Made by a program: the position numbers and the translations under genes
The notes under the pieces: model-generated
What the model saw: only the letters and a program-made list of their open reading frames with translations
Databases searched by the model: none
What the model was told of the DNA's origin: nothing
Assembly: GCA_964517795.1 (NCBI GenBank)
Contig: CAZFDE010000005.1
Span: 3,701-67,700, forward strand
Direction: 5' to 3'
DNA length: 64,000 nucleotides
From: an uncultured Pirellulales bacterium
GTDB lineage: Bacteria; Planctomycetota; Phycisphaerae; Sedimentisphaerales; Anaerobacaceae
Shown here: positions 43,133 to 59,946 of the stretch, in pieces
How the letters are laid out: each line of letters starts with the position of its first letter
Numbering within the stretch: the first letter of the stretch is position 1

Positions 43133-43327
43133 CCGAAAACCTCGAAAACCTTTTCTTATGCTATTGTAATAGACTCAACCGGCATGTGCCAACAAAAATA
43201 GTCCGATACCCCCTATATACCGAACAACGGGCTAATGTTTCTGATGAAGTCCTGATTCAACTTTCGAGGATGTTATGTATTATAAAATACCTAAATAAGC
43301 TGATTATTAATTGTAAAGTTTTGCAAT

Positions 43328-43400
<73 letters not shown>

Positions 43401-43406
43401 AACTCT

Positions 43407-44465
43407 TTATTTACAAGCACTTACAGTTATTTTATTTTCTGCTAATTTTTTTTGGTGTCCATATGGTGTCCATACGGAATCCAAACGCTCTATTGCTTGC
43501 TGTACATATTCAGGCGATAAATGCGAGTATCTCATGGTCGTTTTTATCACTTTATGCCCCATCACCTGTTGTACGGTTTTCAAATCTATTCCCTTCATAA
43601 CCAGGTATGACCCGAAGGTATGTCGCAGGTCATGGAAGCGAAAATCTTCTATTTCGGCTTTCTTCAAAGCCGTTGCAAAGCTTTTTTTAATATCTCCAAT
43701 CGCCTGGCCGTCGCCGTTGCAAAAGACATAATCACTTTCTGACTGCTCTGAAAGCTCAGAAAGCTCCCGATAAAGGGTTTTGTTGATCGGAATGACCCTG
43801 AGTTCGTTGTTCTTTGGCTTTTTGACGGTAATCTTGCGATTATGCAGGTCAACATCCTGCCATTTCAAATTAAGCAACTCTCCCCTTCTCATTCCGGTAT
43901 TCAAGGCGGTTATTACGATTGAACGCAGATAACCGTGGCAGGCCTTGATAAGGGCATCGGCTTCATCAGCACTTAAATACCTTAGCCTGCCGGGTGGCTC
44001 TTTCAGGGATTTAACTGATTTTACCGGATTTGTTTTTACATAGTCCCATTCAATAGCCTTTGTGTACATGTGCTTCAAACAGGCCAGTTCCCTATTAACC
44101 GTGGCAGGAGAGACTCTCTCTAGCCTGTCAGCTTTGTATTTTTCGATCATCCGGGGAGTGATATCAAATAAATATCGTCCTTCAAAGGCAGAACTCAATT
44201 GAGCGACACTGAACCTGTCCCGGCGGTTATAAGTTGAAAAAGCCTTGTTGGCCTTGGAAAATGCTAAATACTGTTTTCCATACTCTTCAAAAAGTATCTT
44301 TTTCTCATCGTAAACGCCCAGGTACTCGCCCTTGGCGAGCTTGACGTGGACATCCTTTAGAACCTGCTGGGCCAGCTTCTTTGACGGGCCGATTTTTCTG
44401 CGCTTACGCCGACCCTTGACGTAATAGTCGATATACCAGTTTTTTCCTTTTTTATATACAGCCAT
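43407..44465 (-). CDS. int: Tyrosine recombinase / phage-type integrase
   Basis: Catalytic C-terminal domain with the R..H-x-x-R..Y pattern (TGMRRGEL, HDLRHTFGSYLVMKG, TTMRYSHL). Its stop codon is 6 bp from the tRNA 5' end. Confidence 0.92.
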   Translation of the reverse strand: MAVYKKGKNWYIDYYVKGRRKRRKIGPSKKLAQQVLKDVHVKLAKGEYLGVYDEKKILFEEYGKQYLAFSKANKAFSTYNRRDRFSVAQLSSAFEGRYLFDITPRMIEKYKADRLERVSPATVNRELACLKHMYTKAIEWDYVKTNPVKSVKSLKEPPGRLRYLSADEADALIKACHGYLRSIVITALNTGMRRGELLNLKWQDVDLHNRKITVKKPKNNELRVIPINKTLYRELSELSEQSESDYVFCNGDGQAIGDIKKSFATALKKAEIEDFRFHDLRHTFGSYLVMKGIDLKTVQQVMGHKVIKTTMRYSHLSPEYVQQAIERLDSVWTPYGHQKKLAENKITVSACK

Positions 44466-44496: not shown

Positions 44497-47400
44497 TTAG
44501 TCATCAAGTATATCATAACTTTCCTCTTTTTGAAGCCTTTTTTCCAGCCACTTCTCCAAATCTTTTACCCTGTACCTATTATTGCCGCCCACTTTGATGT
44601 ACGGGATTTTTCTTTGGTTGCCCCACATGTAAAGAGTTGACGGAGCTACCCCGAGATACGCAGCAGCTTCTTTTACATTCAATAATTCTTTCTGTTTTTT
44701 AATTTGGCCAGAAACAATGGGCTTTTCAGAAACAATAGAGCCTCCCGTGGTATGGAAAAAGTGCTTTATGCTTTCAGGAGAATAGAAATAGATGCGTTCT
44801 TTTTCTTTTGAGTTAAAGGTTTGCTTTACCAACCTTTTGATTTCAGCTAACAGCTTATCATCTGAGCTTACAGCCAAAATATAGTCGTAACCAGCTTGGA
44901 GGCATTTTTTGATATTTTCTTTTTCGTGTTTGGGCTTTGTGGTACTGGCTATCTCAACGGCTACCTTAATATCATCTTTCTTTAGCTCTACATCAACACT
45001 TTCTAAAGAACGCGGAATTTTCTTTTCAATATCAGCTTTCCAGCCAAATACCTTAGCTTGCTCTGCTATACTTTCTTGAAGCTGTTGATGAACATCCCCA
45101 CCTTTTCCCCTGGTTGTGAGTTTTTGGGCCAGAGCCTGTCCTTTTTCAGTTAAAACAAGTTCTTTTGCCAGCCTTCCTCTTTTGCCTTTTCTGGTTTCCT
45201 GCTGAACTACAAGCCCCTTTTCAATCAGGCTGTTCTTCAATTTATCGCCCTTGTAGCCGCTCAATTTCAAAGCCTTGTATATCTTGGTTACGAACTTTCC
45301 GCTATGAGAGTCAATAAACTTCAAAAATCCTTGCTCTTGGAGCGATAATTCAGATTTTGGCTTAGCCGCTTTTTCTTTTGGAGCGGGCTTTTTTGCTCGA
45401 ATAGTTGGCGTCTCAACAGCAGGAGCCTTTTCTTTTAAAGCTTCCTCTTGCCAATCCAATAACTGCTCAAGCTCTTTTCTGCTCTTTGCGTACTTTTTAC
45501 GAGAAAGCTCGATTATCTTTTCTTTGCGCTCAAGGCCAAGTTGATGTGGCACATTTTCCGGTAAGTAAGTCTCTATATTAAAATCATAATCTGATTTATC
45601 TACCCTGACTATGGCCTCACCAACATCCAGATTCGTCAAATCCTTCGCCTCAAAGTAAGAAAAACCTTCTTCAAGCTTTTTAGCATCGAAATCTCCCAGG
45701 CCGAAACAAATCCTGGTACCCGGATTTGATCTCACAGAACTTGCCAATTCGGGATTTTGACTCCAAAGTTGTTTCAATTCCTGATGGGTCACTATGAGGC
45801 CAAGCCTGTATTTCCGAGCTTCGGATAAGATTTCTGTCATCGATTGGGTAGCGAAATTCTGAAACTCATCGACATAAAGGTAAAAGTCTTTTCGTTTTTC
45901 TTCTGGTTGAGCTTGTCTTGCCATGGCAGCCTGATGGAACTTGGTAACGAGTAACGCTCCTAACAGATACGAAACACCTTTACTAACCATTCCTTGGGAG
46001 AGGTTGGCGAGGAAGATTTTCTTTGTGTCCATTATTTTCTGGAAGTCCAGGCCTTCTTTTTGAATAACCATGTTGCGGATTGACTTTCGACGAAGAAACT
46101 CATTTAAACGTGTCAGAATCGGTGAGCACGCATTCGGACGCAGCATTGGAAACTGCTTTTTCCAATAATATATAACCTGTTGGTCTGTGACTGTTTTCAA
46201 AAAGTCCCTTCGGAAGCTGTTATCAACCAGAAAATGTTGCAAGTCAATTAGTGTGCCGCCTTTTTCGCTTTCCAGAAAAGCTAATATGGCATTGGCGAAA
46301 ACTGAGTTCATCTGGTCGCCCCAGCTTGTCGATAGTCTGCGAAAAACACCGACTAAGTCCGAGGAAAGCAGGGTTTTTTCTTGCTCAGAGTGTGCAGATA
46401 AAACATTCAGCCCCACAGGGTAATTTGAGTCCGCAGCATCAAGCAAAATCACGTCATCGAATCTTTCTTCGGGTACATAGGGCATGATGTGTTCGATAAG
46501 GTCACCGTGCGGATCCAAAACAGCAATCCCATTGCCTTGCTGTATATCCTGGCGAATCATATTCAAAAACAAGGTAGATTTACCCCTGCCCGTAGTGCCG
46601 ATGATATAGGTATGTCGCCGCCTTTGAATCGGGCTTAAGGTAACTTCTATTTCTTTGCCCTGGTGGACGTTTTTACCGAGCACCAACTTGTGGCCAGAAA
46701 CAATAGAAGGTGCTTGTTTGGTTCTCTTTATTTCCCGTTTCAGCTTGGCGGTCTTTACTGAAACAGAAGGCAGATGAACAAGCGAAAGTAACTCTGCTGT
46801 ATTTAACAACATCCCTGTCCTGTGGCTTTGCCTGTAGTATAAATCGTCAAAGTGAAGGTCGTGAGTGTAGGCTTCATCGGTATCTAAAGGGATAAGCTCA
46901 TTACTCGGCGGATTCGAGACCTGCTGCAATCCCGCTGCCAGGCCTTTTGTAATCTCCCAGGCCCGGGCTTCAGATTGACTGGAACCTGCTACCCTGATAA
47001 CCGCAGCCAACAATGGCTTATTTATCTTTTCTTGAGCTAGTTTTATCATTTCAGGACTATCGGTAAAAAAGTTACCGCCTTCACAGTCTGTTAATGATTT
47101 CAAGATGTTTTCATGCCAGGGATTCCTAACCGGTTCAAATAGAATCTGGAACATTGCCATTTCACCTTCAGCTAAATTTTCCATTGAACCTACAATGCCG
47201 GTCAAGGGATCAGGTTCAAAACCACGAAATGCCTTCAAAGGCCTCATAAACTCTTGAGATAAACCAAAGTCAACTATCACAGAAGGATTGTTTCTATCTA
47301 ACCTGCACTTTGGCTGTTGATTCTCGTACAAGGCGGCGTCAGGAAAATATGCTTTTAGCTGCTGGATAACTGTTGAAAAATCAGGTTCTCGGCAAATGAC

Positions 47401-47859
47401 CTGGAATGAAATCTCCTCGAAACAGCCCACAATTTCAAAGCTGACCGGAAATTTGCAGTATCTAAGGTTTAGCAGAAATTGTTCAGTGTAGTCGAAATCT
47501 ATTTTTTGACCTTCGGGTACAGAGACAGTGACACTGGTCAAAGGCGCACTTTCTGTAAGAAATTCCGGTCCTTGGCTGAAGAAATAATCTTTTGACTTCT
47601 CTTGTTCTTCGGAGCTTGCGAACTTATTTTTAACTTTTTCTGCAAAGCTGGTTAAAAGGGATGGTTTTCTGCCGTCATCTACGATTGGTTCTCTTGTGAA
47701 AACACTCGAAATGAAAGGGATGAAGGGCGGCTCTAATCGGACAGGGAAATCCCAGAGCAGCCAGCCCCTGCCTCTTTGCTCCCATTTGTAAAAATCCTCT
47801 GTAAGCTGCTCTGAAAGAGTTTTTTGGTTTTCATTCTGTTCTAAAGGCTCGTTTGCCAT
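44497..47859 (-). CDS. TraD/VirD4-like (FtsK/HerA-superfamily) P-loop ATPase fused to wHTH, a possible PD-(D/E)XK-like module and a C-terminal excisionase-type HTH
   Basis: Walker A motif IIGTTGRGKSTLF. Walker B and coupling-protein-type motifs FYLYVDEFQNFAT and ARKYRLGLIVTHQ. wHTH-like segment KGLVVQQETRKGKRGRLAKELVLTEKG. Possible nuclease core VDVELKKDDIKVAVEIASTTK. Terminal HTH LLNVKEAAAYLGVAPSTLYMWGNQRKIPYIKVG. Confidence 0.65.
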   Translation of the reverse strand: MANEPLEQNENQKTLSEQLTEDFYKWEQRGRGWLLWDFPVRLEPPFIPFISSVFTREPIVDDGRKPSLLTSFAEKVKNKFASSEEQEKSKDYFFSQGPEFLTESAPLTSVTVSVPEGQKIDFDYTEQFLLNLRYCKFPVSFEIVGCFEEISFQVICREPDFSTVIQQLKAYFPDAALYENQQPKCRLDRNNPSVIVDFGLSQEFMRPLKAFRGFEPDPLTGIVGSMENLAEGEMAMFQILFEPVRNPWHENILKSLTDCEGGNFFTDSPEMIKLAQEKINKPLLAAVIRVAGSSQSEARAWEITKGLAAGLQQVSNPPSNELIPLDTDEAYTHDLHFDDLYYRQSHRTGMLLNTAELLSLVHLPSVSVKTAKLKREIKRTKQAPSIVSGHKLVLGKNVHQGKEIEVTLSPIQRRRHTYIIGTTGRGKSTLFLNMIRQDIQQGNGIAVLDPHGDLIEHIMPYVPEERFDDVILLDAADSNYPVGLNVLSAHSEQEKTLLSSDLVGVFRRLSTSWGDQMNSVFANAILAFLESEKGGTLIDLQHFLVDNSFRRDFLKTVTDQQVIYYWKKQFPMLRPNACSPILTRLNEFLRRKSIRNMVIQKEGLDFQKIMDTKKIFLANLSQGMVSKGVSYLLGALLVTKFHQAAMARQAQPEEKRKDFYLYVDEFQNFATQSMTEILSEARKYRLGLIVTHQELKQLWSQNPELASSVRSNPGTRICFGLGDFDAKKLEEGFSYFEAKDLTNLDVGEAIVRVDKSDYDFNIETYLPENVPHQLGLERKEKIIELSRKKYAKSRKELEQLLDWQEEALKEKAPAVETPTIRAKKPAPKEKAAKPKSELSLQEQGFLKFIDSHSGKFVTKIYKALKLSGYKGDKLKNSLIEKGLVVQQETRKGKRGRLAKELVLTEKGQALAQKLTTRGKGGDVHQQLQESIAEQAKVFGWKADIEKKIPRSLESVDVELKKDDIKVAVEIASTTKPKHEKENIKKCLQAGYDYILAVSSDDKLLAEIKRLVKQTFNSKEKERIYFYSPESIKHFFHTTGGSIVSEKPIVSGQIKKQKELLNVKEAAAYLGVAPSTLYMWGNQRKIPYIKVGGNNRYRVKDLEKWLEKRLQKEESYDILDD

Positions 47860-47867
47860 AACCTATT

Positions 47868-48377
47868 TTAACGGCTAAGAATATCTTTCAAGATAGGCTT
47901 TTTCTGCTCTTCTGTAAGCTGTCTAAGCCCTTTGGCATCAACTACATTGTCAACCACTTCCAAAACCGCTGTATGAACCGAATCCCTGAACATCATAGCC
48001 GTATCCAGGGTGTAAAAGGTTTCACGCCGAGAACTGAGCCAGGCCAGCAGGCCAATGGGTGGCAGCAGCCAGAGCAGTAATACCTGCTTTTTAGACAGTT
48101 TTCGCCTCGTGCCCAACCACCAGGAAACAAAAAAGCCGGTACCGAAAGGTGCTGCACAAATATCGAAGATATATTCGTTACGAACGACCCTCAGATACTC
48201 TCTTTTTGCAGATAATACGCCTGCTTCTTTGTAGCTGATGCGTGAGATTTTGACTCCGGGCAATTTCCGGGAGTTGATGGCCTGTTCCATTTGGGAGTAA
48301 ATTTGCTGAGGAGATTCCTGGAGTCCTTCGATGAGTTGGTGCCAGTGCGACAGAATTACAGAAGCTTTTCTTGCCAT
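47868..48377 (-). CDS. Hypothetical protein with one central TM segment, co-transcribed with the giant ATPase
   Basis: GGAGGT RBS. The gap to the downstream ATPase gene is 8 nt. Hydrophobic segment VLLLWLLPPIGLLAWL. I recognise no family. Confidence 0.5.
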   Translation of the reverse strand: MARKASVILSHWHQLIEGLQESPQQIYSQMEQAINSRKLPGVKISRISYKEAGVLSAKREYLRVVRNEYIFDICAAPFGTGFFVSWWLGTRRKLSKKQVLLLWLLPPIGLLAWLSSRRETFYTLDTAMMFRDSVHTAVLEVVDNVVDAKGLRQLTEEQKKPILKDILSR

Positions 48378-48551: not shown

Positions 48552-48579
48552 TTGACTATGCCCAGATTTTGATTATGAT
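48552..48579 (+). promoter_or_regulatory. Putative sigma70-type promoter for the seven-gene operon
   Basis: TTGACT (48552-48557), a 16-nt spacer, then TATGAT (48574-48579), about 50 nt upstream of the ATG at 48631. Found by eye only. Confidence 0.25.
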
Positions 48580-48630: not shown

Positions 48631-48807
48631 ATGCCTGAAGACAGATGGTATTCAGTCGAAGAAATCGCAGAGTATTTGGGCGTGAAAAGGGACACTCTCT
48701 ACAAATGGATCATTCGCAAGAAAATGCCTGCCCACAAGGTCGGGCGATTGTGGAAGTTTCGTAAAAAAGAAGTCGATAAATGGGTTAAGACGGGTAAATC
48801 AGCTTAA
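48631..48807 (+). CDS. Excisionase/MerR-type helix-turn-helix protein (58 aa; below the ORF-track cutoff)
   Basis: Translation: MPEDRWYSVEEIAEYLGVKRDTLYKWIIRKKMPAHKVGRLWKFRKKEVDKWVKTGKSA. A GGGAG RBS lies 8 nt upstream, and the stop is 1 nt before the next start. Confidence 0.8.
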   Translation: MPEDRWYSVEEIAEYLGVKRDTLYKWIIRKKMPAHKVGRLWKFRKKEVDKWVKTGKSA

Positions 48808-48808
48808 A

Positions 48809-51800
48809 ATGTCGGACTTTCTCGAACAATCTGTTGATATTCTCAAGCTTGGCACTAAGGAATTGCATGCGTTGAGGCTTTTAAAAGTTGAAAGTATTAA
48901 AGATTTTATAAAGCTTAAGCTCAATAGCGACCTTATGCCGAGAGGGTATGGGTATTTTACGTATAAATCGCTTCAGAAAACTCAAAAGAAATTACTTAAA
49001 AAGCAACATATTTTAGTTCAGAAAACGAATCGTGATAAAACTCAAATATTTTCAGAGATATTAAATAGAGTCAACGTTAGAACACAACATTGCCTTCGTA
49101 GATTAGGCGTAATTACACTCCAAGGTTTTCTTGAATTAACGGATGAGGATGTTTTGGGTTGCAAAGGGGCAGGACAGAAAGTTTTATCTGAAATAAAAAT
49201 GATCCAAAATGATTATATACATCTGAGATCATTTGATAGTAATAGTTTTCTGAGTACTCCCGCTAATCATGAAATATTTAAGAATTTGCCTTTGTTTTCT
49301 AGTAAACCATTACCAATTACCGATGTAGAGTTGAATTCGTCATATTTCCCATATTTAAAGGTCGAACAGATACAATTACCTGATTGGACAAGTCAATATT
49401 TAAAACAAATGAATATAAAAACTTTTGGTGAATTGTTATTGACCCCAGGAGAAGAATTTTTGCAACTTTCCGGATTCGGAACAAATAAACTGCATGAACT
49501 TAAGCAAGCTGCATATCTTTTTCTTAGCTGTAACATAGAACAAAAGGGCGCCAAAGATAAAAAAGAAATATTCAAAGACGTAATCCAAACAATGAGCGTT
49601 AGGACACAAAATATTTTGAAAAGATTAGAGGTAAATACAACTAAAGAGTTGCTTTTCCTTACAGATCAAGAAATTATACATTGTAAAGGAGCGGGATACA
49701 AGGTTTTATCTGAAATAAAACTGTTTCAAAAAAAATATCGGCATCTTAAATCTATCCCTCTAGTGGATTGTTTACGTAGCCCTGCAAACAAAGAAAACAT
49801 AAAGTTTTTACCTTTATTTTCTAATGAACCTTTAGCTGAAAATAATATAGATTTGCATCCATCATATCTTCCAATAAAAAAATTATCTGAAATAATGTTT
49901 CCATCAAGAGCTACAAAATTGTTCAAAAATTTGAAGATTAGAACTATTGGGGAGCTTTTACTGACTCCACCACAAACTTTTATTGACCAAGACAATGTGG
50001 GAATAATAACTATAAAGCAAATTAGGGAGAAAATTGAAAATTGTATTTTAAATAATCAAAATCATATTAATATTTTTAATAAAAGCTTTTCCTCAACTGA
50101 CTTATTGAAGAATTTTACGCAAACAGCTCTTACAACGCGAGAAAGAAAAGTAATTCTGCTTAGAGCGGGGGTATTTGACTCAGTCAATACATTAGAACAA
50201 ATTGCAAAACACTTAAGACTAACACGAGAAAGAATCCGTCAAATACAAAGTAAAGCCGAAAAAAAATTAAGACATCCCTCTAATATCAAGTTGCTTAATA
50301 AATTACAAAACAATATTGAACAAATTATTAAATATTCCGGTGGCAGGATATTACTGAGTGAATTGGCAAAGAAATTGGATTATGAATTGAGTTGGGATAA
50401 GCCCAGCAAAATATCAGTAATTGATTTCATCATTAGCCTATTTGGAAATATGAAAACTGACAACGAGATCGTTTATTTAGATGATTTTCCATGTAGATAT
50501 TGCAATGCAGCCAAAGACGCAATTGAAAATAAAATGCGATTGTCCTTTGAGGTTAATATAAAAGACATATCCGATAAAACTAAAGAATTTTGCTCTTCGC
50601 AAGACTGTAAACTTTTTGATCAGGAAAAAACAAATTTTTCCTGCATTTTTATAAAGCATTATATTGCCAATAGGCCAAAGCTACGGAAACTTTATTCGTG
50701 TCATAATAACCTTATCTGCAAGGCAGAGCTTAAATGTCTAAAATATGGGCCAAAACATCTTGCAGTCGAACAAATTCTTAAAGACTCTCGGAAGCCCTTG
50801 CATTTTACCGAAATAACTTCGATATATAAAGATTATCGTCCTGAAGAAAAGGTTTCAGACCAATCGATCTATGGAATATTAGGCAATTTGAATAAAGCTG
50901 TGCTTTGGGATCGGGGAACTTTTATACATTATGATTATATTCTTTTTGACACTGAATTTACTGATGATGTTTCTGATTGGCTATTTTTAAATTTACGTAA
51001 TGGGTTGAGTTTTATTTCTATTTCAGGAGCGTACTCAACATTTAAAAAGAGATGTAAAAAACTTAATATAAAATCAGAGATGGCTTTATATTCATACCTA
51101 AGGTTAGAAAGACCCAAAAAACTTTTTTTGAATAAATACCCATTCATTACAAGAACAAACCGTAAAATATCTGTTCAAGATTTTTTGGTAGATTATGTGA
51201 AAGCACGAGACGGGGAAATACCTTTGAACGAGCTAAAAGAGCACTTGAAAACGTATGGCTTTAAAAATCATTTAGGAAATATGTTAAGAAATGTTCCGAG
51301 TCTATTAATAGCAGACAATAATAAAATAATACATGTTGATAATTTAAATATAACGTCGCCCAGATTTTATAAAATATGCAAGTATGCTCAAAGCCTGTTG
51401 CTTAACTCAAATATTATTAGTGTCCAAAAAGTATATAAAGACAAAATGATAAGCTGCAAACTACTTGGTATAAATGGCCCTCGTTTGTTGTTTTCTTGTT
51501 TCCAAAACTTTGGCCAACAATTCATAATTACAGGGCGTTATCCGCAATTAAAGAGTTTAGATAAAAAACATCTTAAAGGATTAGGTATTAGGACAGAATT
51601 TGAAGACTACCTTAAAAAACACGGCACCTGTAGCAAAGAAGGATTGATTGAACATTTTGTTGAAAAAATGGGCTACAGTGAAGGCTCAATTGAGGCTGCC
51701 GTTTATTACTTAGATGACATTTTACTTTACACTCCTAATTGTTACATAAATAGGACTAATTTGGGTTGGAGTCAGAAACAGTACAATAAATTATTACAAA

Positions 51801-52216
51801 TATTGAGAGAAGCATATTTTGAGAGTTCTAAAAAAGGAAAATATTATGCTCGACTCAAAGATATTTATGATTATTGGTATGTTAAATTGCCAGAAATCCA
51901 AAGTGATATTCCTTGGACATTCACATTGCTGCGGAGTTTAACTGAAAGTATTGAAGATTTTAGATTTCTCGGAAATGCTAAAGATGCTTATATCGCTCTA
52001 AACTCTAATAATCAAATTAAAACCCTACAAGATTTGATTCATATGTTACTGTACCAAGAATATGATGGTGCCGCGAAAAAAGATGATTTAGAAAAACAAT
52101 TGGTCAGTGAAGGTATTCTGAGGAAGCATTTGACACCAAACATGTTAAATGACTCAGACAAAATAGTTATTAACGGAAATAATGTAATTGCAAAAGAGCT
52201 AGTCCAAAATGTTTAA
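48809..52216 (+). CDS. 1135-aa multi-DNA-binding-module protein: RpoA-alphaCTD-like HhH modules (4-5), sigma-70 region-4 HTH, Cys-rich segment, HARE-HTH-like module, long uncharacterised C-terminus
   Basis: alphaCTD-like units: VNVRTQHCLRRLGVITLQGFLELTDEDVLGCKGAGQKVLSEIK, MSVRTQNILKRLEVNTTKELLFLTDQEIIHCKGAGYKVLSEIK, LPDWTSQYLKQMNIKTFGELLLTPGEEFLQLSGFGTNKLHELK and FPSRATKLFKNLKIRTIGELLLTPPQTFIDQDNVGIITIKQIREKIE. Sigma region 4: LTTRERKVILLRAGVFDSVNTLEQIAKHLRLTRERIRQIQSKAEKKL. HARE-HTH-like: LAVEQILKDSRKPLHFTEITSIYKDY...SIYGILGN..AVLWDRGTFIH. Confidence 0.7.
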   Translation: MSDFLEQSVDILKLGTKELHALRLLKVESIKDFIKLKLNSDLMPRGYGYFTYKSLQKTQKKLLKKQHILVQKTNRDKTQIFSEILNRVNVRTQHCLRRLGVITLQGFLELTDEDVLGCKGAGQKVLSEIKMIQNDYIHLRSFDSNSFLSTPANHEIFKNLPLFSSKPLPITDVELNSSYFPYLKVEQIQLPDWTSQYLKQMNIKTFGELLLTPGEEFLQLSGFGTNKLHELKQAAYLFLSCNIEQKGAKDKKEIFKDVIQTMSVRTQNILKRLEVNTTKELLFLTDQEIIHCKGAGYKVLSEIKLFQKKYRHLKSIPLVDCLRSPANKENIKFLPLFSNEPLAENNIDLHPSYLPIKKLSEIMFPSRATKLFKNLKIRTIGELLLTPPQTFIDQDNVGIITIKQIREKIENCILNNQNHINIFNKSFSSTDLLKNFTQTALTTRERKVILLRAGVFDSVNTLEQIAKHLRLTRERIRQIQSKAEKKLRHPSNIKLLNKLQNNIEQIIKYSGGRILLSELAKKLDYELSWDKPSKISVIDFIISLFGNMKTDNEIVYLDDFPCRYCNAAKDAIENKMRLSFEVNIKDISDKTKEFCSSQDCKLFDQEKTNFSCIFIKHYIANRPKLRKLYSCHNNLICKAELKCLKYGPKHLAVEQILKDSRKPLHFTEITSIYKDYRPEEKVSDQSIYGILGNLNKAVLWDRGTFIHYDYILFDTEFTDDVSDWLFLNLRNGLSFISISGAYSTFKKRCKKLNIKSEMALYSYLRLERPKKLFLNKYPFITRTNRKISVQDFLVDYVKARDGEIPLNELKEHLKTYGFKNHLGNMLRNVPSLLIADNNKIIHVDNLNITSPRFYKICKYAQSLLLNSNIISVQKVYKDKMISCKLLGINGPRLLFSCFQNFGQQFIITGRYPQLKSLDKKHLKGLGIRTEFEDYLKKHGTCSKEGLIEHFVEKMGYSEGSIEAAVYYLDDILLYTPNCYINRTNLGWSQKQYNKLLQILREAYFESSKKGKYYARLKDIYDYWYVKLPEIQSDIPWTFTLLRSLTESIEDFRFLGNAKDAYIALNSNNQIKTLQDLIHMLLYQEYDGAAKKDDLEKQLVSEGILRKHLTPNMLNDSDKIVINGNNVIAKELVQNV
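49046..50038 (+). repeat. Internal tandem duplication (about 155-aa unit, two copies) inside the 1135-aa gene
   Basis: Unit 1 is aa 80-233 and unit 2 is aa 254-410; they align collinearly (IFSEILNRVNVRTQ.. / IFKDVIQTMSVRTQ.., PANHEIFKNLPLFSSKPL / PANKENIKFLPLFSNEPL). Short stretches are near-identical at the nucleotide level, for example GTTTTATCTGAAATAAAA in both copies. Confidence 0.8.
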
Positions 52217-54320
52217 AAAGCTTAATTTACAACCTATTTACGATAGTTCGGAGCTAAGCATTATTAACGAACTTATAATTCCGCTTTTATCAAATTCCGT
52301 AGCATATCACAGAGGTGTCGGTTTTTTTACTTCTGGTTGGCTTCGATTGGCATCAAAAGGGTTGGCTAAATTAATAGAAAATGGTGGAACAGCAAAAATA
52401 GTAGTTTCACCATTATTATGTGAAGGGGATTGGAAAGCTTTGGTTTTGGGTGAAGAAGCTAAACACAATAAAGTACTAAAAGAAAAACTACATCTTAGTC
52501 TAGATGAGATAAGTAAAAATCTTGAAGCAAATACTCTCAGCACATTAGCATGGATGGTTGCGGATGAATTGGTTGAATTTAAATTTGCCATTGCAAAACA
52601 GGAGTTTGCTGGGGGTGATTACCATGATAAAGTTGGATTATTTCAAGACAACAATGGTGATGAAATAGCAATACATGGATCTTTCAATGATACACTGAAG
52701 GGCACATTAAATGGAGAAGCCTTTTCTGTATTTAAGTCTTGGGAAACAGGGCAAAATCCTTATGTAGTTAAACACAAACAACGTTTAATTAAGCTTTGGA
52801 ATAACAATAATGGTCAATTTATTGTTTATACCATTCCGGAAGCTATAAAAAAACAATTCATTCAGTACCGTACCCAAGAGCGGCCCTACATTCTTAAAAA
52901 TAAAAGTACTGCTGCTGTAGCTAAAATAGCTGATAATGCGATTAATCTCCGCTATTATCAAAAAAAAGCTATTCAAGAGTGGCTGTCTAATGAGCGTAAA
53001 GGTATTTTTGAGATGGCTACGGGAACAGGAAAAACATTTACTGCATTAGCAACAGCACAAAAAGCCTTTGAAATTGACAACATTCAAGCCTTGGTAGTCT
53101 TAGTTCCATACATACATCTTTTAGAACAATGGGCAGAGGAAACGGAAAAATTTGGATATGTGCCTGTATTATGTAGCGGTCAGCACAAACATTGGCCCAA
53201 AAAGGCTAGATCTAAAATTGAAGATTATAATCTTGGTAGCCTAAAAAAGATATGCCTTATTTCAGTTCACCATACAGCTTCCACTAATCGCTTTTTAAAA
53301 ACAGTTGGCAAACTTAAAAACCATTCAATGGTCGTTGCGGATGAAGTACATCGCTTAGGTTCCGGAGAATTAAAAAAAGCCCTTTATGAAAAGTACCAAT
53401 ATCGTTTGGGACTCTCAGCAACTCCTGAACGATGGTATGATGAAATTGGGACACAAGCGCTATTTAATTACTTTGAAGGTATATGTTACAGGTATGGCTT
53501 AAGCGAAGCCATAGAAAATAAATACCTCACACCTTATGATTATAATCCCATACTTGTTGAGTTAACGTCTGATGAATTAGACAAATATGAACAGCTTACC
53601 AATAAAATAATCTCACTGGCACCACAAGCCAAGGCTGATATTGAAGTTTCAGAAACGTTAAAAATTCTTTTGCTAAAAAGAACTGAATTAATTGCAAAAG
53701 CTGCACATAAATTACCAGTACTTATAAAATTGCTTAAAGGCATTATTTCAGAAACATATAGGGAACAGCAAGAAGCCTCACACATTTTAATTTATTGTGC
53801 TCCTGGCAAACATAGAGAAATCTTAAAGGCTGTTTCCGATATAGGCTTACGATGCCATGAGTTTGTGCACACCGTATCATTAAAAGATCGAAGAAAGGTA
53901 TTAACAGATTTTAAATCTGGTCATATACAAGTCTTGGTTGCCGTTAAGTGTCTGGACGAAGGTGTTGATGTGCCTGCAACACAATCAGCTTTTATTCTTG
54001 CCAGTAGCACTAACCCAATGGAATATGTTCAACGCCGAGGTAGGATATTAAGGCCATCTGAAGGAAAAAATAAAGCAAATATTTATGATTTCATTGTTAC
54101 ACCGTCTGCCAATAATATTATTGGAGATAAGTTTGCAGGGGTACTTAAACGTGAAATGCCCCGGTTTGTAGAATTTTCTTCTTTAGCAAAAAATAAATTT
54201 CAAGCAAGAAAAGTAGTGCGTGAAATGTTAGATAAGAATGGGCTATTAGATTTATTAGACAAATTTCCTTGGGATATTTACAGGGAAGCAAAAAAGGACA
54301 TGTTAAATGATTACGAATAA
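52209..54320 (+). CDS. PLD-family (single HKD) nuclease domain fused to an SF2 DEAD/DEAH (ResIII-type) helicase
   Basis: HKD motif: DYHDKVGLFQDNNGDEIAIHGSFNDT. Helicase motifs: I MATGTGKTF, II VVADEVHRLG, III LGLSATPER, VI QRRGRILR. It overlaps the upstream gene by 8 nt. Confidence 0.85.
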   Translation: MFKKLNLQPIYDSSELSIINELIIPLLSNSVAYHRGVGFFTSGWLRLASKGLAKLIENGGTAKIVVSPLLCEGDWKALVLGEEAKHNKVLKEKLHLSLDEISKNLEANTLSTLAWMVADELVEFKFAIAKQEFAGGDYHDKVGLFQDNNGDEIAIHGSFNDTLKGTLNGEAFSVFKSWETGQNPYVVKHKQRLIKLWNNNNGQFIVYTIPEAIKKQFIQYRTQERPYILKNKSTAAVAKIADNAINLRYYQKKAIQEWLSNERKGIFEMATGTGKTFTALATAQKAFEIDNIQALVVLVPYIHLLEQWAEETEKFGYVPVLCSGQHKHWPKKARSKIEDYNLGSLKKICLISVHHTASTNRFLKTVGKLKNHSMVVADEVHRLGSGELKKALYEKYQYRLGLSATPERWYDEIGTQALFNYFEGICYRYGLSEAIENKYLTPYDYNPILVELTSDELDKYEQLTNKIISLAPQAKADIEVSETLKILLLKRTELIAKAAHKLPVLIKLLKGIISETYREQQEASHILIYCAPGKHREILKAVSDIGLRCHEFVHTVSLKDRRKVLTDFKSGHIQVLVAVKCLDEGVDVPATQSAFILASSTNPMEYVQRRGRILRPSEGKNKANIYDFIVTPSANNIIGDKFAGVLKREMPRFVEFSSLAKNKFQARKVVREMLDKNGLLDLLDKFPWDIYREAKKDMLNDYE

Positions 54321-54339: not shown

Positions 54340-54510
54340 ATGGCAGAAATAAATGACTTGATAATTAAAAAACTCAAAGCTTATCCCAGGGATGTTCAGA
54401 AGATAGCAATAAAAGCTATTGAGTTATCTGAAAATCAACCAGAAATCACAGTTCGCGATAGGATTGAAGCTGAAATAAGAAGTATTGTCAAAATGGATGG
54501 ACAAAAATGA
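54340..54510 (+). CDS. 56-aa hypothetical protein (below the ORF-track cutoff)
   Basis: Translation: MAEINDLIIKKLKAYPRDVQKIAIKAIELSENQPEITVRDRIEAEIRSIVKMDGQK. AAGAGG RBS. Its stop overlaps the next start (ATGA). Confidence 0.6.
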   Translation: MAEINDLIIKKLKAYPRDVQKIAIKAIELSENQPEITVRDRIEAEIRSIVKMDGQK

Positions 54511-56552
54511 TACTTAAAGAAATAAAGTTTAAAAATTTTAGGCAGTTCAAGGATGAACAGAACATCAAATTTGCTTATAGTTCCGGTAAAAAAAATGTGA
54601 CGGTAATATTTGGGCAAAATGGGCGAGGTAAAACGGCTGTTTTTAGGGCTATCATGTTTTGCTTGTACGGAGACAGAAAACTTTCCCAAGACGGCGAAAC
54701 AGCTGAAAAAGAGATACATCTTGTTAATACAGCAGCCTTGGAAAATTCTAAAGGCAGCAACGAACCGGTAGAAACTTATGTACAGCTAGATTTCGAACAC
54801 AGAGGAATTAAATATTCGATCAAACGCACTCTTTTAGGAATAATTGAAGGAAATAGGGTCATCGAAGAGCTTGGAGAAATAACCCTTTATCAAACTGATG
54901 AAAAAGGAAATACTCGGCCAATACGTGATCCTAAAGACATAAATGAGGTTGTTAACAAAATACTCGACCAAAGAGTTCGTGAATACTTTTTATTTGATGG
55001 GGAAAAAATTGAGCGACTTACAAGGGCAAGTCAGGACCAGAAAAGAGAAATTTCTAAGGGCATTCGAAATCTTCTAAATATTGATTCTCTGCAAAAATCA
55101 ATAGGTGCTATAAAAAAAGTTCGAAAAAAGCTTGATACTGAGTTGGCAAATAATTCTTCAGGAGAATTGGCCAGAGTAATAAAAAAAATAAACGATAATA
55201 TTGACAAAAGAGATAAGCTCGAAAAAGAACTTGAAGAGTTAGGGCAAGAATATGATTTGGCGCGTTCCGAAAAAATCGATGTTGACAAAAAACTTGACGA
55301 ATATGGTGAGATTGCTGATTTAATAAGACAACGTAAAGAATTGGAGCGTGAGGAGAAGGAAAGGGAAAGTTCTTTGCATGAAAACAGCATAAACATGCGT
55401 ACTCGCATAGGCAAGGGATCATTTCTGTTAGTCAGTAATTTAGTTGACCGCGTTTACGAAGAAATCGAACAATGCAAAAAAAGGGGTGAAATACCATCAG
55501 AAATAAGGCGAGAACTTATAGAAAAAATATTAATAGAACAAAAATGTATTTGTGGCAGAAATATAAAACCTGACTCTGATGCTTTCCATAAAATTATAGA
55601 ATGGAAGAATAAAACCGCAGACATTACTCTTCAAGATATAATACTTGAGGTATGGAGACATCTAAGCACAATTCGCAGTAGAAAAGAAGATACTGGAGAA
55701 TCAATTGAAGCTGCACTTCAAAAATATGGTGTGGATAAAAATGAACTGGAAGAAGCAAGACGTAAAATACAAAACATCAGTGAAAAAATTGGCAGCGATG
55801 TTCGCCAGGATGCAGTTGGGTTAGAACAACATAGGAAGAATATAGAAGACAGTTTAGTAAAAATAGAAGCTAAACGCCAATTAATAGATTCTGAAATTAT
55901 CGCACTAAAAGAGGAATATCAGAGCTTAACCAAACAGCGTAAAGAATTCGAGAAGAAAGAAGGTTTGATCGGGGAATTGAATAGCCGAGCGGATTTGGCT
56001 TCACGATGTTACGATGCTCTTTTCGAAATATATAAAGAATTTACTGATGATGTTAAAATTAGCCTTGGCAAGGAAGCAACTCAAGTTTTAGAAAAACTAT
56101 TATCCGAACATGGTCATAAGAATTTGCGAGAAGTAAAAATAGCCAATGATTATTCTCTCCAAGTTGTGGATAAATGGGGCAAGCCTTTCCTGGCCAATAT
56201 TTCTGCTGGTGAACGGCAGATCATGTCAATATCCTTTATAACGGCTCTTGCTAAAGCTGCTTCAGGCGGTAATACTTTAGAAATGCCTTTATTTATGGAC
56301 ACCCCTTTTGGCCGCTTATCTTCTGACCACCGCCAAAATCTTATTGAAGTTATTCCAAATGAAACAACGCAATGGATACTTCTTGCTACAGATACAGAAT
56401 TTAGAAAACAAGAGGCTATACTTTTGAAGGATGGTGGAAGATGGGGTAGATTTTATACTTTAGAAACAAACAATGATGGAAGTACAAGAATCCAAGAACG
56501 TAAAATTCAGGAATCAATGCAATTATTAATTGATGAAATAGAGGATTATTGA
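54507..56552 (+). CDS. DndD-like SMC/ABC-type ATPase
   Basis: N-terminus: LKEIKFKNFRQFKDEQNIKF....VTVIFGQNGRGKTAVFRAIMFCLYGD. A long coiled-coil middle region. C-terminal SAGERQIMSISFITALAKA and the DndD-type signature LFMDTPFGRLSSDHRQNLIEVIP...QWILLATDTEF. Confidence 0.85.
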   Translation: MILKEIKFKNFRQFKDEQNIKFAYSSGKKNVTVIFGQNGRGKTAVFRAIMFCLYGDRKLSQDGETAEKEIHLVNTAALENSKGSNEPVETYVQLDFEHRGIKYSIKRTLLGIIEGNRVIEELGEITLYQTDEKGNTRPIRDPKDINEVVNKILDQRVREYFLFDGEKIERLTRASQDQKREISKGIRNLLNIDSLQKSIGAIKKVRKKLDTELANNSSGELARVIKKINDNIDKRDKLEKELEELGQEYDLARSEKIDVDKKLDEYGEIADLIRQRKELEREEKERESSLHENSINMRTRIGKGSFLLVSNLVDRVYEEIEQCKKRGEIPSEIRRELIEKILIEQKCICGRNIKPDSDAFHKIIEWKNKTADITLQDIILEVWRHLSTIRSRKEDTGESIEAALQKYGVDKNELEEARRKIQNISEKIGSDVRQDAVGLEQHRKNIEDSLVKIEAKRQLIDSEIIALKEEYQSLTKQRKEFEKKEGLIGELNSRADLASRCYDALFEIYKEFTDDVKISLGKEATQVLEKLLSEHGHKNLREVKIANDYSLQVVDKWGKPFLANISAGERQIMSISFITALAKAASGGNTLEMPLFMDTPFGRLSSDHRQNLIEVIPNETTQWILLATDTEFRKQEAILLKDGGRWGRFYTLETNNDGSTRIQERKIQESMQLLIDEIEDY

Positions 56553-56553
56553 T

Positions 56554-56991
56554 ATGAGCATGTCAACAGACTTGAGAGTAAAGGTAAATAAAGAATACTC
56601 GGATTTATATACGGATTGGAGAAACCTCTGTTCTGATATGCACGAGTTATTTTTCTTGTGTGTTTGTTTGGGTTACAATGCTCAAAAAAATACTCCTTTG
56701 GGAAGAAAAGGTGAACCGAAATTTTGGTCGGGTACAATAACTCCTGAAGAATGGAGTTGCTTTTATGCAATGCTTCTCAAAAAAAACCAAATGGATCCTA
56801 AGTCTGTTATGGATGACAAAATAGTTATGTCTGAAATGGAAGGCTTTGCTAATGCCGGAATGGAAATATTAATTGACGAACTTTTAACTGATTTTACTAT
56901 TGGAGACAGAAAAAACCTTAGAATTGATAGCAGTAGCTCAAAAGACTTGGCTAAAAGTATTTTGGCTTATATTAATGATTTAGCACAATAA
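56554..56991 (+). CDS. 145-aa hypothetical protein (possibly a small Dnd-associated/DndE-like helper; unverified)
   Basis: It is tightly coupled, with 1-nt gaps on both sides. The segment ELFFLCVCLGYNAQKNTPLGRKGEPKFW reminds me of small Dnd-associated proteins, but I cannot confirm this without an HMM search. Confidence 0.45.
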   Translation: MSMSTDLRVKVNKEYSDLYTDWRNLCSDMHELFFLCVCLGYNAQKNTPLGRKGEPKFWSGTITPEEWSCFYAMLLKKNQMDPKSVMDDKIVMSEMEGFANAGMEILIDELLTDFTIGDRKNLRIDSSSSKDLAKSILAYINDLAQ

Positions 56992-56992
56992 A

Positions 56993-58345
56993 ATGAGAAT
57001 ATTATTAGTTGAACCTGATTATAAAAATAAATACCCACCTTTGGGACTTATGAAACTTTCTGCTTTTCATAAGCGAATAGGAGATTTTGTAAAGTTTGTA
57101 AAAGGATGTGATAGAGAAATTGTCCAGGAAGAATGGGACAGAATTTATATAAGTACATTATTTACGTTCTATTGGAACAAAACTTTGCAAACCGTCAAAT
57201 ATTATGAGCGAAAAACAACTGATCCTAAAAAAATTTTTATCGGTGGCGTTTTAGCTACACTTCTTACTGAAGAGATTAAAAAAGAAACAAATGTCAATAT
57301 TGTTAGAGGCCTTATTACATCACCTCATGATATTGGCTTAAAAGGGTCGTATTGTATAGACCATATAATGCCGGATTACAGCATCTTAAGTGAAATCAAT
57401 TATAAGTATTCTACAGAAAATGCTTATATTGGCTACGCAACTCGTGGTTGCCCTAATAGATGCGATTTTTGCGCAGTAAAAAGCATAGAACCTAATTTTG
57501 AACATTATTTACCACTAAAAAAACAGATCAAGGGCGTAGAGGATATTTATGGTACTCGTAAAGACTTACTACTTCTTGATAATAATGTCCTGGCATCTAA
57601 TAAGTTTAAAACGATCATTGAAGACATAATTAGTTTGGGTTTTGGAAAAGGAGCCACGTTAAACGGCAAAAAACGATACGTTGATTTCAATCAAGGTATA
57701 GATGCTAGGAAATTTAGTAAAAAAAATGCTAAGCTACTGTCAAAAATAGCACTAAAACCTTTAAGATTAGCATTTGACAGCATCAAATATCGAAATATTT
57801 ATGAAAAGAGCGTTAGATTAGCAAGTGAATGGGGGATTTCTCATCTGTCAAATTATATTCTTTATAACTATACTGATACACCCGAAGATTTTTACCAAAG
57901 GCTTAAAATTAATATTCGACTAAACAGACAGCTTGGAACCAAAATATACTCATTTCCTATGAAATATATTCCTCTTGATTCAAAAAACAGGAGGTATATT
58001 GGCGAAAACTGGAATAGACAATATATTCGTGGGGTTCAATGCATTCTTTTAGCAACACATGGTATGGTGGGGCCTAATAATGAGTTTTTTAAAGCAGCGT
58101 TTGGTAGTTCTCAAGAAGAGTTTAAGAAAATAATTTCAATGCCAGAAAAATATATAATATACAGAGAAGCACATAAGAATAATGGAGCTCTGGATTGGAA
58201 GTTGCTTTACAATCGTTTATCACCTGGACAAAAAAGAACTTTTCATTCAAAACTCTTCTCAAAAAGAATTGATAAATTAGATGTGATTCGAGAAAGTAGC
58301 ATTAGACTTAAAAATATATACAGTCATTACACAGCCATCCCATAA
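56993..58345 (+). CDS. Radical SAM enzyme with an N-terminal B12-binding-like domain; last 4 codons and the stop are supplied by an IS end
   Basis: N-terminus MRILLVEPDYKNKYPPLGLMKLSAFHK, typical of B12-domain radical SAM proteins. CxxxCxxC cluster motif ATRGCPNRCDFCAV. Codons TAIP plus the stop (58331-58345) lie within the IS inverted repeat. Confidence 0.85.
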   Translation: MRILLVEPDYKNKYPPLGLMKLSAFHKRIGDFVKFVKGCDREIVQEEWDRIYISTLFTFYWNKTLQTVKYYERKTTDPKKIFIGGVLATLLTEEIKKETNVNIVRGLITSPHDIGLKGSYCIDHIMPDYSILSEINYKYSTENAYIGYATRGCPNRCDFCAVKSIEPNFEHYLPLKKQIKGVEDIYGTRKDLLLLDNNVLASNKFKTIIEDIISLGFGKGATLNGKKRYVDFNQGIDARKFSKKNAKLLSKIALKPLRLAFDSIKYRNIYEKSVRLASEWGISHLSNYILYNYTDTPEDFYQRLKINIRLNRQLGTKIYSFPMKYIPLDSKNRRYIGENWNRQYIRGVQCILLATHGMVGPNNEFFKAAFGSSQEEFKKIISMPEKYIIYREAHKNNGALDWKLLYNRLSPGQKRTFHSKLFSKRIDKLDVIRESSIRLKNIYSHYTAIP

Positions 58346-59685
58346 GTTTGTAGATTTTGCATCGTGACCTCATTTACCGTAGCAATAAGGCCATTTTTGT
58401 GGTGCGTTTCTATAACCCCAGTTTGCAATTTTTATTGGCTATTATCAATTCGGCAAGATGATCCTTGATCTGAGATTCATTAATTTTGATAACATTATTA
58501 AAGTTCTTGTGCTGTTGTGACGATTCATTGTTATGCATCGTTCTGTCCTTTCTTTGTTTTAATGGTTAATAATTATTTTTATACCATCGACCAAAGAAAG
58601 GACTCTTTTAATTTCAATTTCAAATGTGCGAAAAATATTATACGTTCCCGCTTGAAAAACACCTCGACACCCCAGCGACATTTATACAAATCACAAATAC
58701 TGCTCGGTGCCCATATCATATTGTTTGTGATAAATGTCATTGTTTTTTTCACGCCATTAATTTCCACTTCAGCTGTAATTAAACGTAATCTCTGCGGGTA
58801 AGCCTTGCGGCTTTTCAGTGTTTTAAGTTCGATTAATACATCGCTAAGAATATCACCCTTTGGTTTTGTATGCCGTTTAACAATACGATACTGCATATTG
58901 TCTTTAGCACGAGTAACCCAGAAAACGCATCGTCTGTCAAGGTCAGCCAGATGCGTGAAATCCACGTAGGCCTTATCAAACACCGATATTTCGCCACTTT
59001 TAAGATTCAGGCAGAGGCGATAGGCTTCGGTGGAATCATGCGTAGAAGCCTCTTTGACGATAGCGAATTGCGGCAGAAATGTCTGGAGGTTAAGCTGCAT
59101 ATGACACTTTGCCGCCGCTTTACGCCTGCGATGTTTGGCCCAGTCAATACAATTTGCAACAAGCTGAATAGTGGTTGAGTCAATTGCATAGATTGTTCGC
59201 TTGAACCGTCTTGGCAGACCGGAATACTTATGGTTACGCCCGAAGTCGGGGTGTTTGTTTTCGATATGGGACAGCACATCCCAGAAGAGTGTTTGTGCCA
59301 TATTGGGGTCTCGAACACGGTTTGCATGCGACAGGCCATTCCTGCTGGGCGGTGTTGCACCGCGAATAGTTGTCAAAACTCCCGAATGATTACGCAATGT
59401 GTCTGCCACGTCGTTGAGCGATAGGCTGTGTGCAATCTGGACGTGCAACATAGCAACAACATGCGACCAAGGCGAAAAAGATCGTGCTTTCTTGTCTATT
59501 CCGAAAGACCGGGCAAGTTTTGGAACAAGATGAGCTGGAATATGCTGGCATATTTGATTGAGAATGGTATAGTTATGTTTAGCTGGCTTCATGAGTTACT
59601 CCTATTTTTTTCACGATTATAGTGTAACTCAGAAGCCGCTATTTTAGAAGAAATCTCATAGTTAATTTCCTATGGGATGGCTGTG
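58330..59685 (-). mobile_element. IS4-family-like insertion sequence (1356 bp) with terminal inverted repeats and a 9-bp target-site duplication
   Basis: IRL at 58330-58346 is CACAGCCATCCCATAAG. The reverse complement of IRR (59669-59685) is CACAGCCATCCCATAGG, a 16/17 match. Direct repeats CAGTCATTA at 58321-58329 and 59686-59694 flank the IRs. The element is visibly GC-richer than the surrounding island. Confidence 0.85.
58579..59592 (-). CDS. IS4-family DDE transposase (DUF4372-type N-terminus); C-terminus possibly degenerate
   Basis: N-terminus: ILNQICQHIPAHLVPKLARSFGIDKKARSFSPWSHVVAMLHVQIAHSLSLNDV. DDE region with YAIDSTTI and VFDKAYVDF. C-terminal YKCRWGVEVFFK is followed by a short atypical tail and about 250 bp of non-coding sequence. 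Confidence 0.75.
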   Translation of the reverse strand: MKPAKHNYTILNQICQHIPAHLVPKLARSFGIDKKARSFSPWSHVVAMLHVQIAHSLSLNDVADTLRNHSGVLTTIRGATPPSRNGLSHANRVRDPNMAQTLFWDVLSHIENKHPDFGRNHKYSGLPRRFKRTIYAIDSTTIQLVANCIDWAKHRRRKAAAKCHMQLNLQTFLPQFAIVKEASTHDSTEAYRLCLNLKSGEISVFDKAYVDFTHLADLDRRCVFWVTRAKDNMQYRIVKRHTKPKGDILSDVLIELKTLKSRKAYPQRLRLITAEVEINGVKKTMTFITNNMIWAPSSICDLYKCRWGVEVFFKRERIIFFAHLKLKLKESFLWSMV

Positions 59686-59946
59686 CAGTCATTACATAGG
59701 TAATTAAGGGTAAGCAAATGCCAGTTGAAGATGAAAACATGCATGAAACCTTTTTACTAAAAGAATATGACAATATTGCAAAGGCACACTTTACTACGGT
59801 CGGAGCAAGGCTATTAGCAAATCTTTACTGCTGCCGGTTAAATTTGCAAACATTTTTAATGTTGACTTCATTAGCTATATGCCTAAATAAATATCTTGTG
59901 TTGTTGATTTAGGGCTTTATAATATTCGGTGAAAGGATTAGTAAGA

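Follow-up and report, generated by a model that had tools for sequence, protein, structure and literature searches.

What is a protein assembled from RNA polymerase-like modules doing at the head of a row of defence genes? The question is raised by a 64,000-nucleotide (nt) stretch of DNA from an uncultured Pirellulales bacterium (contig CAZFDE010000005.1, positions 3,701 to 67,700), here called the window, and all open reading frame (ORF) coordinates are numbered on these 64 kb. The ORF at 48809..52216 (+) has an ATG start and encodes a product of 1135 amino acids (aa) that we name BIG. A first-pass annotation had described it as a protein of polymerase-subunit-like modules, namely repeats resembling the C-terminal domain (CTD) of the alpha subunit, a sigma-70 region 4 and a HARE-HTH-like unit; the ORF was confirmed, and all three module assignments survived profile tests. 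On balance we favour the view that BIG is the dedicated DNA-recognition subunit, conferring specificity or sensing DNA state, of a six-gene defence cassette with an optional HTH_17 regulator in front. This view is based on the domain make-up of BIG, its obligate, collinear and usually overlapping linkage to the other genes, its divergence, and the association of its relatives with DNA modification.

Domain organization of BIG

The N-terminal half of BIG begins with five alpha-CTD-type (HhH)2 repeats (48848..50032, +). Pfam RNA_pol_A_CTD matches four stretches of the protein (E=4.8e-25; 87.5 bits, cutoff 23.8), and a hidden Markov model (HMM) of the repeat, retrained on the family, finds five copies (aa 14-59, 89-133, 190-234, 262-307 and 364-408), in agreement with the 4-5 copies noted at first pass. 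Repeats 2+3 and 4+5, including their linkers, resemble a tandem duplication. At the positions that we take to correspond to R265, G296 and K298 of the Escherichia coli alpha-CTD in the alignment, all three residues are retained in repeats 2 and 4, and the first two in repeat 5. The HhH array is the least conserved part of BIG, with a copy number of 0-5 across the family, an occupancy of 62%, and no detectable copy in about one third of the representatives. BIG is not itself an RNA polymerase alpha subunit, which requires an N-terminal dimerisation/assembly domain and a single CTD; here there are five copies and only C-terminal-domain matches. The NCBIfam rpoA models likewise match by their C-terminal part only (best two 60.7-61.1 bits, against cutoffs of 227.8-277).

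The repeats are followed by a sigma-70 region 4 helix-turn-helix (HTH) at aa 441-489 (50129..50275, +), with the recognition helix LTRERIRQIQ. Its assignment was borne out by Pfam Sigma70_r4 (E=5e-10; 39.2 bits, cutoff 24.1) and by conservation of the helix TRERIRQ (TRERxRQ), which stands at 81-98% among 147 family representatives. The positions that we equate with E. coli R584, E585, R586, R588 and Q589 are 88-98% conserved, and the TRERxRQ residues presumably contact the -35 element, as would be expected of sigma-70 factors in general. There are also partial matches to the RpoD, MzaA and PglW models, that to RpoD by its C-terminal part only. BIG was rejected as a sigma factor of the sigma-70 family, since Sigma70_r4 alone was found and neither Pfam nor NCBIfam gave a match to region 2 or 3.

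Between region 4 and the C-terminal half lies a helical unit (50486..50734, +; AlphaFold2 (AF2) pLDDT 54-86) that includes the Cys-rich stretch noticed at first pass. Only part of that stretch is conserved: C562/C565 and C595/C600 are retained in 76-85% of about 145 representatives, while the other Cys residues, including those of 'CHNNLIC', are not. This pattern suggests one putative four-Cys metal site (C562, C565, C595, C600).

The remaining C-terminal ~420 aa had been regarded as uncharacterised. According to structure prediction, this region is a tandem winged-helix array, and seven or eight winged helices are counted in BIG as a whole. The AF2 model of aa 497-1135, built from six family sequences, has a pLDDT of 81.5 and displays a string of about eight helix-strand-helix-helix-strand-strand (H-b-H-H-b-b) units. 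When the PDB was searched with this model by Foldseek, every one of the best matches was a tandem winged-helix array (UFL1, SelB WH1-4, Dcc1, STK19, TFIIIC and Rpc5). Units cut from 150 family representatives were compared with hhalign; P0003, which has a BIG-like N-terminal half and a different C-terminal half, was omitted from the C-terminal alignments.

Two kinds of repeat emerge from this comparison. The first, type A, comprises aa 643-712 (A1; 50735..50944, +), 784-846 (A2; 51158..51346, +) and 921-985 (A3; 51569..51763, +), which are mutually homologous with hhalign probabilities of 98-99% (A2 to A1 98.4%, A3 to A1 97.8%, A2 to A3 99.0%); A2 additionally gives weak TFIIE_beta/PaaX winged-helix matches. 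The second comprises the winged-helix-like units B1 (aa 713-783; 50945..51157, +), delimited by AF2 secondary structure, and B2 (aa 847-920; 51347..51568, +), recognised by homology to B1 (hhalign 98.8%). Two terminal units (aa 986-1066 and 1067-1135; 51764..52213, +) complete the array, the last being a winged helix with a weak relationship to the A units (hhalign 80% against aa 784-846). As judged by these profile comparisons, a HARE-like winged helix occurs three or four times in BIG, alternating with another winged-helix-like unit.

The name HARE-like derives from A1, which contains the motif KPLHFTEI...LWDRGTFIH. The first-pass assignment of this unit to HARE-HTH stands at the level of the family, although BIG itself falls under the Pfam threshold. 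Of 39 family members, 12 match PF05066, whereas every other Pfam family is limited to a single member at most. The profile of the A1 segment aligns with the HARE-HTH of P0011, a smaller relative that passes the Pfam threshold, at an hhalign probability of 97% (E=7.9e-11), and in the AF2 model A1 adopts the H-b-H-H-b-b order of a winged helix with pLDDT 86-95. Against the Bacillus subtilis delta subunit, A1 gives an hhalign probability of only 15%, and the profile of the HARE-like unit finds nothing significant among PDB sequences (best E=0.38).

Across the family the conserved core of BIG is formed by the sigma-4 HTH and the winged-helix array. This bears on a different explanation of the protein, in which it would be a mimic of RNA polymerase. 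Phages taking over their host ADP-ribosylate R265 of alpha and bind region 4 with anti-sigma proteins; modules imitating the parts that phages modify or bind could serve as a decoy that, once attacked, would set free or switch on the nuclease-helicase encoded next to BIG. All three module types are indeed found in polymerase subunits as well, the R265-equivalent Arg is retained in repeats 2, 4 and 5, and the region-4 helix, including KLRHPS, is near-identical to that of primary sigma factors; the fast evolution of BIG (see below) would also suit a sensor facing an invader. We nevertheless consider a decoy quite unlikely, given that the conserved core includes a seven-to-eight-unit winged-helix array for which the polymerase has no counterpart, and that the best-conserved residues of region 4 are those contacting DNA rather than the hydrophobic positions. 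The variable number of alpha-CTD repeats, with none detectable in about a third of the representatives, and the location of BIG relatives beside DNA-modification genes argue mildly in the same direction.

Gene order and the Pbe system

The neighbours of BIG, as identified by model matches, position and size, make up a complete PbeABCD (CxC-ABC-DndE) system. PbeA, a fusion of a phospholipase D (PLD)/HKD nuclease domain with a superfamily 2 (SF2) helicase (52209..54320, +), matches the PADLOC PbeA model over its full length (E=8.6e-227) and NCBIfam dnd_restrict_1 (E=7.8e-144), with phospholipD_antiphage on its N-terminal half (aa 13-385) and Pfam ResIII, DEAD and Helicase_C matches. PbeB is a small protein of 56 aa (54340..54510, +), an ORF with the position and size described for PbeB (PMC6459918, PMC10853773). 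PbeC (54507..56552, +) is a CxC-type, DndD-like ATP-binding cassette (ABC) ATPase, matched by PADLOC PbeC (E=7.5e-177) and NCBIfam DndD (E=1.8e-55), with its CxC motif, KCICGR, within the coiled-coil insert. PbeD, the DndE-like partner of PbeC (145 aa; 56554..56991, +), was assigned by position and size. Neither PbeB nor PbeD of the window gave a direct Pfam match with the local library; PF27807 (DNA_S_mod_dnd_assoc_4) is found on the PbeD homologues of loci L019 and L024, with a faint match in L006. The PLD-helicase beside BIG, already recognised at first pass, is PbeA; the complete PbeABCD system, the obligate enzyme that follows it and the repetition of the HARE-like unit had been overlooked.

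That enzyme, a radical S-adenosylmethionine (SAM) protein of 450 aa (rSAM; 56993..58345, +), is the last gene of the operon, which reads HTH_17, BIG, PbeA, PbeB, PbeC, PbeD, rSAM, with genes abutting or overlapping all along. The start of PbeA overlaps the stop of BIG by 8 nt. The first gene (48631..48807, +) encodes a small DNA-binding protein of 58 aa, of excisionase/MerR type (Pfam HTH_17, E=2.9e-18), whose stop lies 1 nt ahead of the BIG start, and homologues are found immediately 5' of BIG in four other loci (L001, L009, L010 and L019). It is the probable regulator of the operon. The best promoter-like site, TTGACT-16-TATGAT at 48552-48579, lies 5' of this gene and is a consensus match only; in the promoter and terminator scan, matches were no better than expected from shuffled sequence.

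Many defence operons begin with a regulator, and BIG, which contains a region 4 of sigma and numerous HTH units, might itself be a transcription regulator, or an alternative-sigma-like factor, that does no more than control expression of the operon. We regard this as very improbable. Regions 2 and 3 of sigma are absent from the Pfam and NCBIfam matches, a protein of 1135 aa with ~14 DNA-binding units far exceeds a regulator, and a separate HTH_17 gene is already present upstream in the window and in those four loci. The strict collinearity and overlap of BIG with PbeA point instead to a structural subunit.

In the published accounts, Pbe cores are accompanied either by DndCDEA or by cytosine methylases together with an MTaX1 protein (PMC6459918; PMC10853773). 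The cassettes studied here share with them PbeA, a small PbeB, a CxC PbeC and a DndE-like PbeD in canonical order, but have BIG in front and rSAM behind, and in the window the cassette has no dnd, ssp or methylase gene as a neighbour. The main texts of PMC6459918 and PMC10853773 mention no radical SAM enzyme and no BIG-like protein.

Distribution and divergence of the cassette

A word-indexed search had returned only nine proteins, suggesting a tiny family. This count was an artefact of the rapid divergence of BIG, and it was overturned by an exhaustive HMMER search that found 618 representatives (clusters at 50% identity) at E<=1e-30. Loci were then gathered in three ways, starting from BIG homologues, from rSAM homologues, and from pattern scans of genomes and metagenomes; searches started from the rSAM protein lead to the same BIG-Pbe cassette. 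The order BIG-PbeA-PbeB-PbeC-PbeD-rSAM is the same in the 39 fetched loci with full cassettes, whose hosts belong to many phyla and include Bacillota, Patescibacteria, Smithella, Geobacter, Desulfocapsa, Chromatiaceae and Cryosericum. Homologues of PbeD and rSAM were present in 39/39 of these and of PbeB in 33/39. PbeA follows BIG directly in every fetched Pbe-type locus that has more than ~700 nt downstream of BIG, and in 7 of the 8 loci with called genes, the window included, the BIG stop and PbeA start overlap by 7-17 nt. A tblastn search of the BIG C-terminal half against PLSDB plasmids gave no match.

The exceptions to the cassette pattern are four decayed or interrupted loci (L025, L038, L039, L061) and L008, in which a gene is inserted and the rSAM gene is flipped. 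In the decayed cassettes among the four, a ~300-aa ORF is found in place of PbeB-PbeD, and PbeA and rSAM are truncated; in the interrupted variant PbeB is followed by an inserted gene of 429 aa on the reverse strand.

Within the cassettes the median identity of BIG is 28.5%, at 0.24 bits/residue, whereas PbeA, PbeC, PbeD and rSAM of the same loci reach 42-52% identity and ~0.9-1.06 bits/residue. BIG is therefore the fastest-evolving component, with a rate of divergence some four times that of its partners, a pattern that is expected for a specificity or sensor subunit.

The six-gene Pbe-rSAM cassette with BIG is apparently an undescribed, widespread variant of PbeABCD; no description of a BIG-PbeABCD-rSAM subtype was found in the searchable literature, though Krishnan et al. 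2020 may mention it. It represents a very common Pbe subtype in which the phosphorothioation genes are replaced by rSAM and a giant putative DNA reader, and its compactness makes it suitable for asking what such systems recognise.

Relatives of BIG and comparison with known systems

Smaller proteins (P0010, P0011 and P0008; 553-845 aa) carry the alpha-CTD, sigma-4 and HARE modules in the same order as BIG, with fewer repeats, and A1 of BIG aligns to them. The HARE-HTH of P0010 and P0011 is above the Pfam threshold, and a C5 DNA methylase gene is found in the neighbourhood of P0011. P0008 (845 aa; two alpha-CTD repeats, sigma-4 and a HARE-like unit) is located directly 3' of SspA-SspB-SspC-SspD in L024, a Logan contig of SRR27422822. 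L024 is a hybrid locus: P0008 is followed by an inverted PbeA-PbeD-PbeC-PbeB, so that a BIG-like protein links an Ssp-type phosphorothioation module to a Pbe core. In two further loci (L016, 2818-9277; L009, 4358-4930) a BIG-related protein (P0003 in L009) is followed by a 780-aa protein with a 3'-phosphoadenosine 5'-phosphosulfate (PAPS)-reductase domain, and in L016 additionally by a 1375-aa ATPase; both loci resemble type 4 BREX or Ssp-like modification modules.

Such placements raise the possibility that BIG is a targeting subunit for rSAM alone, comparable to HsdS, with no role in restriction, and that PbeABCD senses the resulting mark without help. The genes specific to the subtype are two, BIG and rSAM, and each is always accompanied by the other. 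The BIG relatives of L009 and L016 directly precede other modification enzymes, P0008 directly follows them, and archaeal PbeABCD works without a BIG homologue (PMC6459918). However, BIG is coupled to PbeA, at the end of the operon opposite the rSAM gene, and it is still found beside PbeA in decayed cassettes whose rSAM gene is truncated. We therefore judge a role confined to targeting rSAM to be unlikely.

Among characterised proteins, the C-terminal half of PglW from type 2 BREX resembles BIG in having an alpha-CTD-like domain followed by HTH and winged-helix units. This stretch of PglW has been published as an alpha-CTD-like domain plus three winged HTHs, and was proposed to be a DNA-binding or scanning module (PMC12839542). 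PglW models match aa 360-523 (PADLOC) or 261-523 (NCBIfam) of BIG, corresponding to PglW residues ~804-984. BIG was rejected as a PglW, because only that segment matched, with 40.9 bits against a cutoff of 990. It lacks the NERD nuclease, kinase and inactive STAND domain of PglW, differs in its five HhH repeats and its seven or eight winged helices, and is part of another system. Similarly, the C-terminus of MzaA, the sigma-70 family protein of the MZA system, matches the region-4 HTH of BIG, but over only ~60 residues and with 50.8 bits against a cutoff of 800, and BIG is without sigma region 2.

Tandem winged-helix arrays are also present in DndG, SspB/DUF4007 and BrxA of phosphorothioation or BREX systems, where they have been proposed to act as DNA scanners (PMC10853773, PMC12839542). 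BIG is like these proteins in its architecture, with no detectable sequence relation. A relationship of its C-terminal half to SspB/DUF4007 was ruled out (hhalign 0.1% against a DUF4007 protein).

The radical SAM enzyme

The partner enzyme is a member of the radical SAM superfamily, as its cluster motif and partial TIM barrel indicate. Weak Pfam Radical_SAM and B12-binding matches are accompanied by a CX3CX2C motif at C153/C157/C160, and the segment CPNRCDFC is invariant in 42 homologues. By sequence the protein has no match in the PDB. Its AF2 model (pLDDT 89.7) consists of an N-terminal Rossmann domain of the cobalamin-binding type and a radical SAM barrel, and the top Foldseek matches are MgmA, MiaB/MtaB, TsrM, AprD4, OxsB and RimO (E 3.5e-11 to 5e-6). 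This two-domain fold is shared with cobalamin-dependent class B radical SAM enzymes and methylthiotransferases (MgmA, TsrM, OxsB, MiaB, RimO), but at only 10-14% identity. The Rossmann domain resembles that of MgmA, TsrM and OxsB, and the same fold also occurs in MiaB and RimO, which are not cobalamin enzymes. Identity as a methylthiotransferase was ruled out: no N-terminal Cys triad is conserved, so that rSAM is not of that type and has no auxiliary cluster of the methylthiotransferase kind.

The rSAM family is well conserved and very large, comprising at least 7955 clusters at 90% identity, the top 120 with an identity of at least 53%. Distant homologues with 39-42% identity are found on alphaproteobacterial plasmids, between DGQHR (DndB-like) genes, once more in the company of DNA modification. 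For example, the conjugative plasmid pNL1 (NC_009426.1, 118850-125348) carries the group DGQHR - rSAM - ATPase - DGQHR, with an rSAM of 39% identity, which looks like a different system of DNA-modification type.

Proposed role of BIG and rSAM

In other Pbe/CxC systems a modification module of DndCDEA, SspABCD or cytosine methylases occupies the slot that rSAM would fill here, and the DNA modifier of this subtype is probably rSAM, in lieu of Dnd genes or methylases. We infer that BIG binds DNA and recognises a target or a DNA state. The variable N-terminal HhH array would provide avid contact with DNA that is largely independent of sequence or directed to the A/T minor groove, and the sigma-4 HTH with the seven or eight winged helices would read the major groove. 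The HARE-like winged helices might read either a sequence or a mark laid by rSAM. BIG could then signal to PbeC-PbeD, as the scanning pair, and to PbeA, as the nuclease-helicase, whether a given DNA should be spared or attacked, direct rSAM to DNA, or do both. A DNA-state sensor recruiting the neighbouring PLD-helicase had been suggested at first pass. The context fits such a sensor (linkage to PbeA, fast evolution, relatives linked to phosphorothioate genes), while DNA binding, reading of a mark and recruitment are predictions from that context.

Several points weigh against this proposal. The A1 unit of BIG scores E=0.024-0.037 with Pfam HARE-HTH PF05066, at 15-15.5 bits and under the cutoff of 25.9, and HARE-HTH is reportedly a predicted reader of modified DNA, a published prediction rather than a demonstrated rule. 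The sigma-4 helix would recognise a -35-like hexamer common to host and phage DNA, so that sigma-4 alone would not discriminate self from non-self. The substrate of rSAM could be a nucleotide, a peptide (e.g., PbeB) or a protein. Finally, in the single experimental study of a Pbe system viral replication was blocked and DNA cleavage was not seen (PMC6459918). This account of a block without cleavage has been disputed by comparative work.

A more specific version is that the cassette is a restriction-modification-like system, in which rSAM writes a new DNA mark unlike methylation by SAM transferases or phosphorothioation, and BIG, as its reader, licenses or restrains PbeA. We put this forward tentatively, as a possibility that is rather less likely to be true than false. 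If rSAM does modify DNA, radical chemistry would join the known kinds of epigenetic self-marking, and BIG would be the first tractable case for testing HARE-HTH as a reader of modified DNA. The set of alpha-CTD, sigma-4 and winged-helix modules is also present in PglW and MzaA, and a result for BIG would carry over to type 2 BREX and MZA.

The surrounding island

The operon occupies an island of low GC content (31-36%, compared with about 50%). A tRNA-Arg(TCT) (43327-43401, -) directly adjoins a tyrosine integrase (43407-44465, -), and from this point onward the GC content drops from ~50% to 31-41%. The position of the drop indicates that the defence genes sit in an island integrated at the tRNA.

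Between the integrase and the cassette, at 44497-48377 (-), is an ATPase of 1120 aa that resembles HerA/FtsK/TraD, ends in an HTH_17 and has PADLOC mad8 and mad1 matches, accompanied by a 169-aa partner without matches; the pair may serve the island in transfer or as another defence module. On the other side, an IS4 transposase is located past the cassette at 58579-59592 (-). Beyond it, a group at 59929-62175 (+) comprises a 201-aa ORF, a Peptidase_M78 (ImmA/IrrE) protein and a 375-aa 'Beta protein' (PF14350), and may be a further module of defence type.

Host genes border the island. A 422-aa fusion of nitroreductase and DJ-1/PfpI (40227-41495, +) lies beside a glutamine-dependent NAD synthetase. 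The region 1-39329 is a long same-strand cluster whose products include an aminotransferase of DegT type, a further radical SAM enzyme (36889-38028) and a protein of 923 aa with an F5/8 type C domain; it probably directs the biosynthesis of a surface polysaccharide or something similar.

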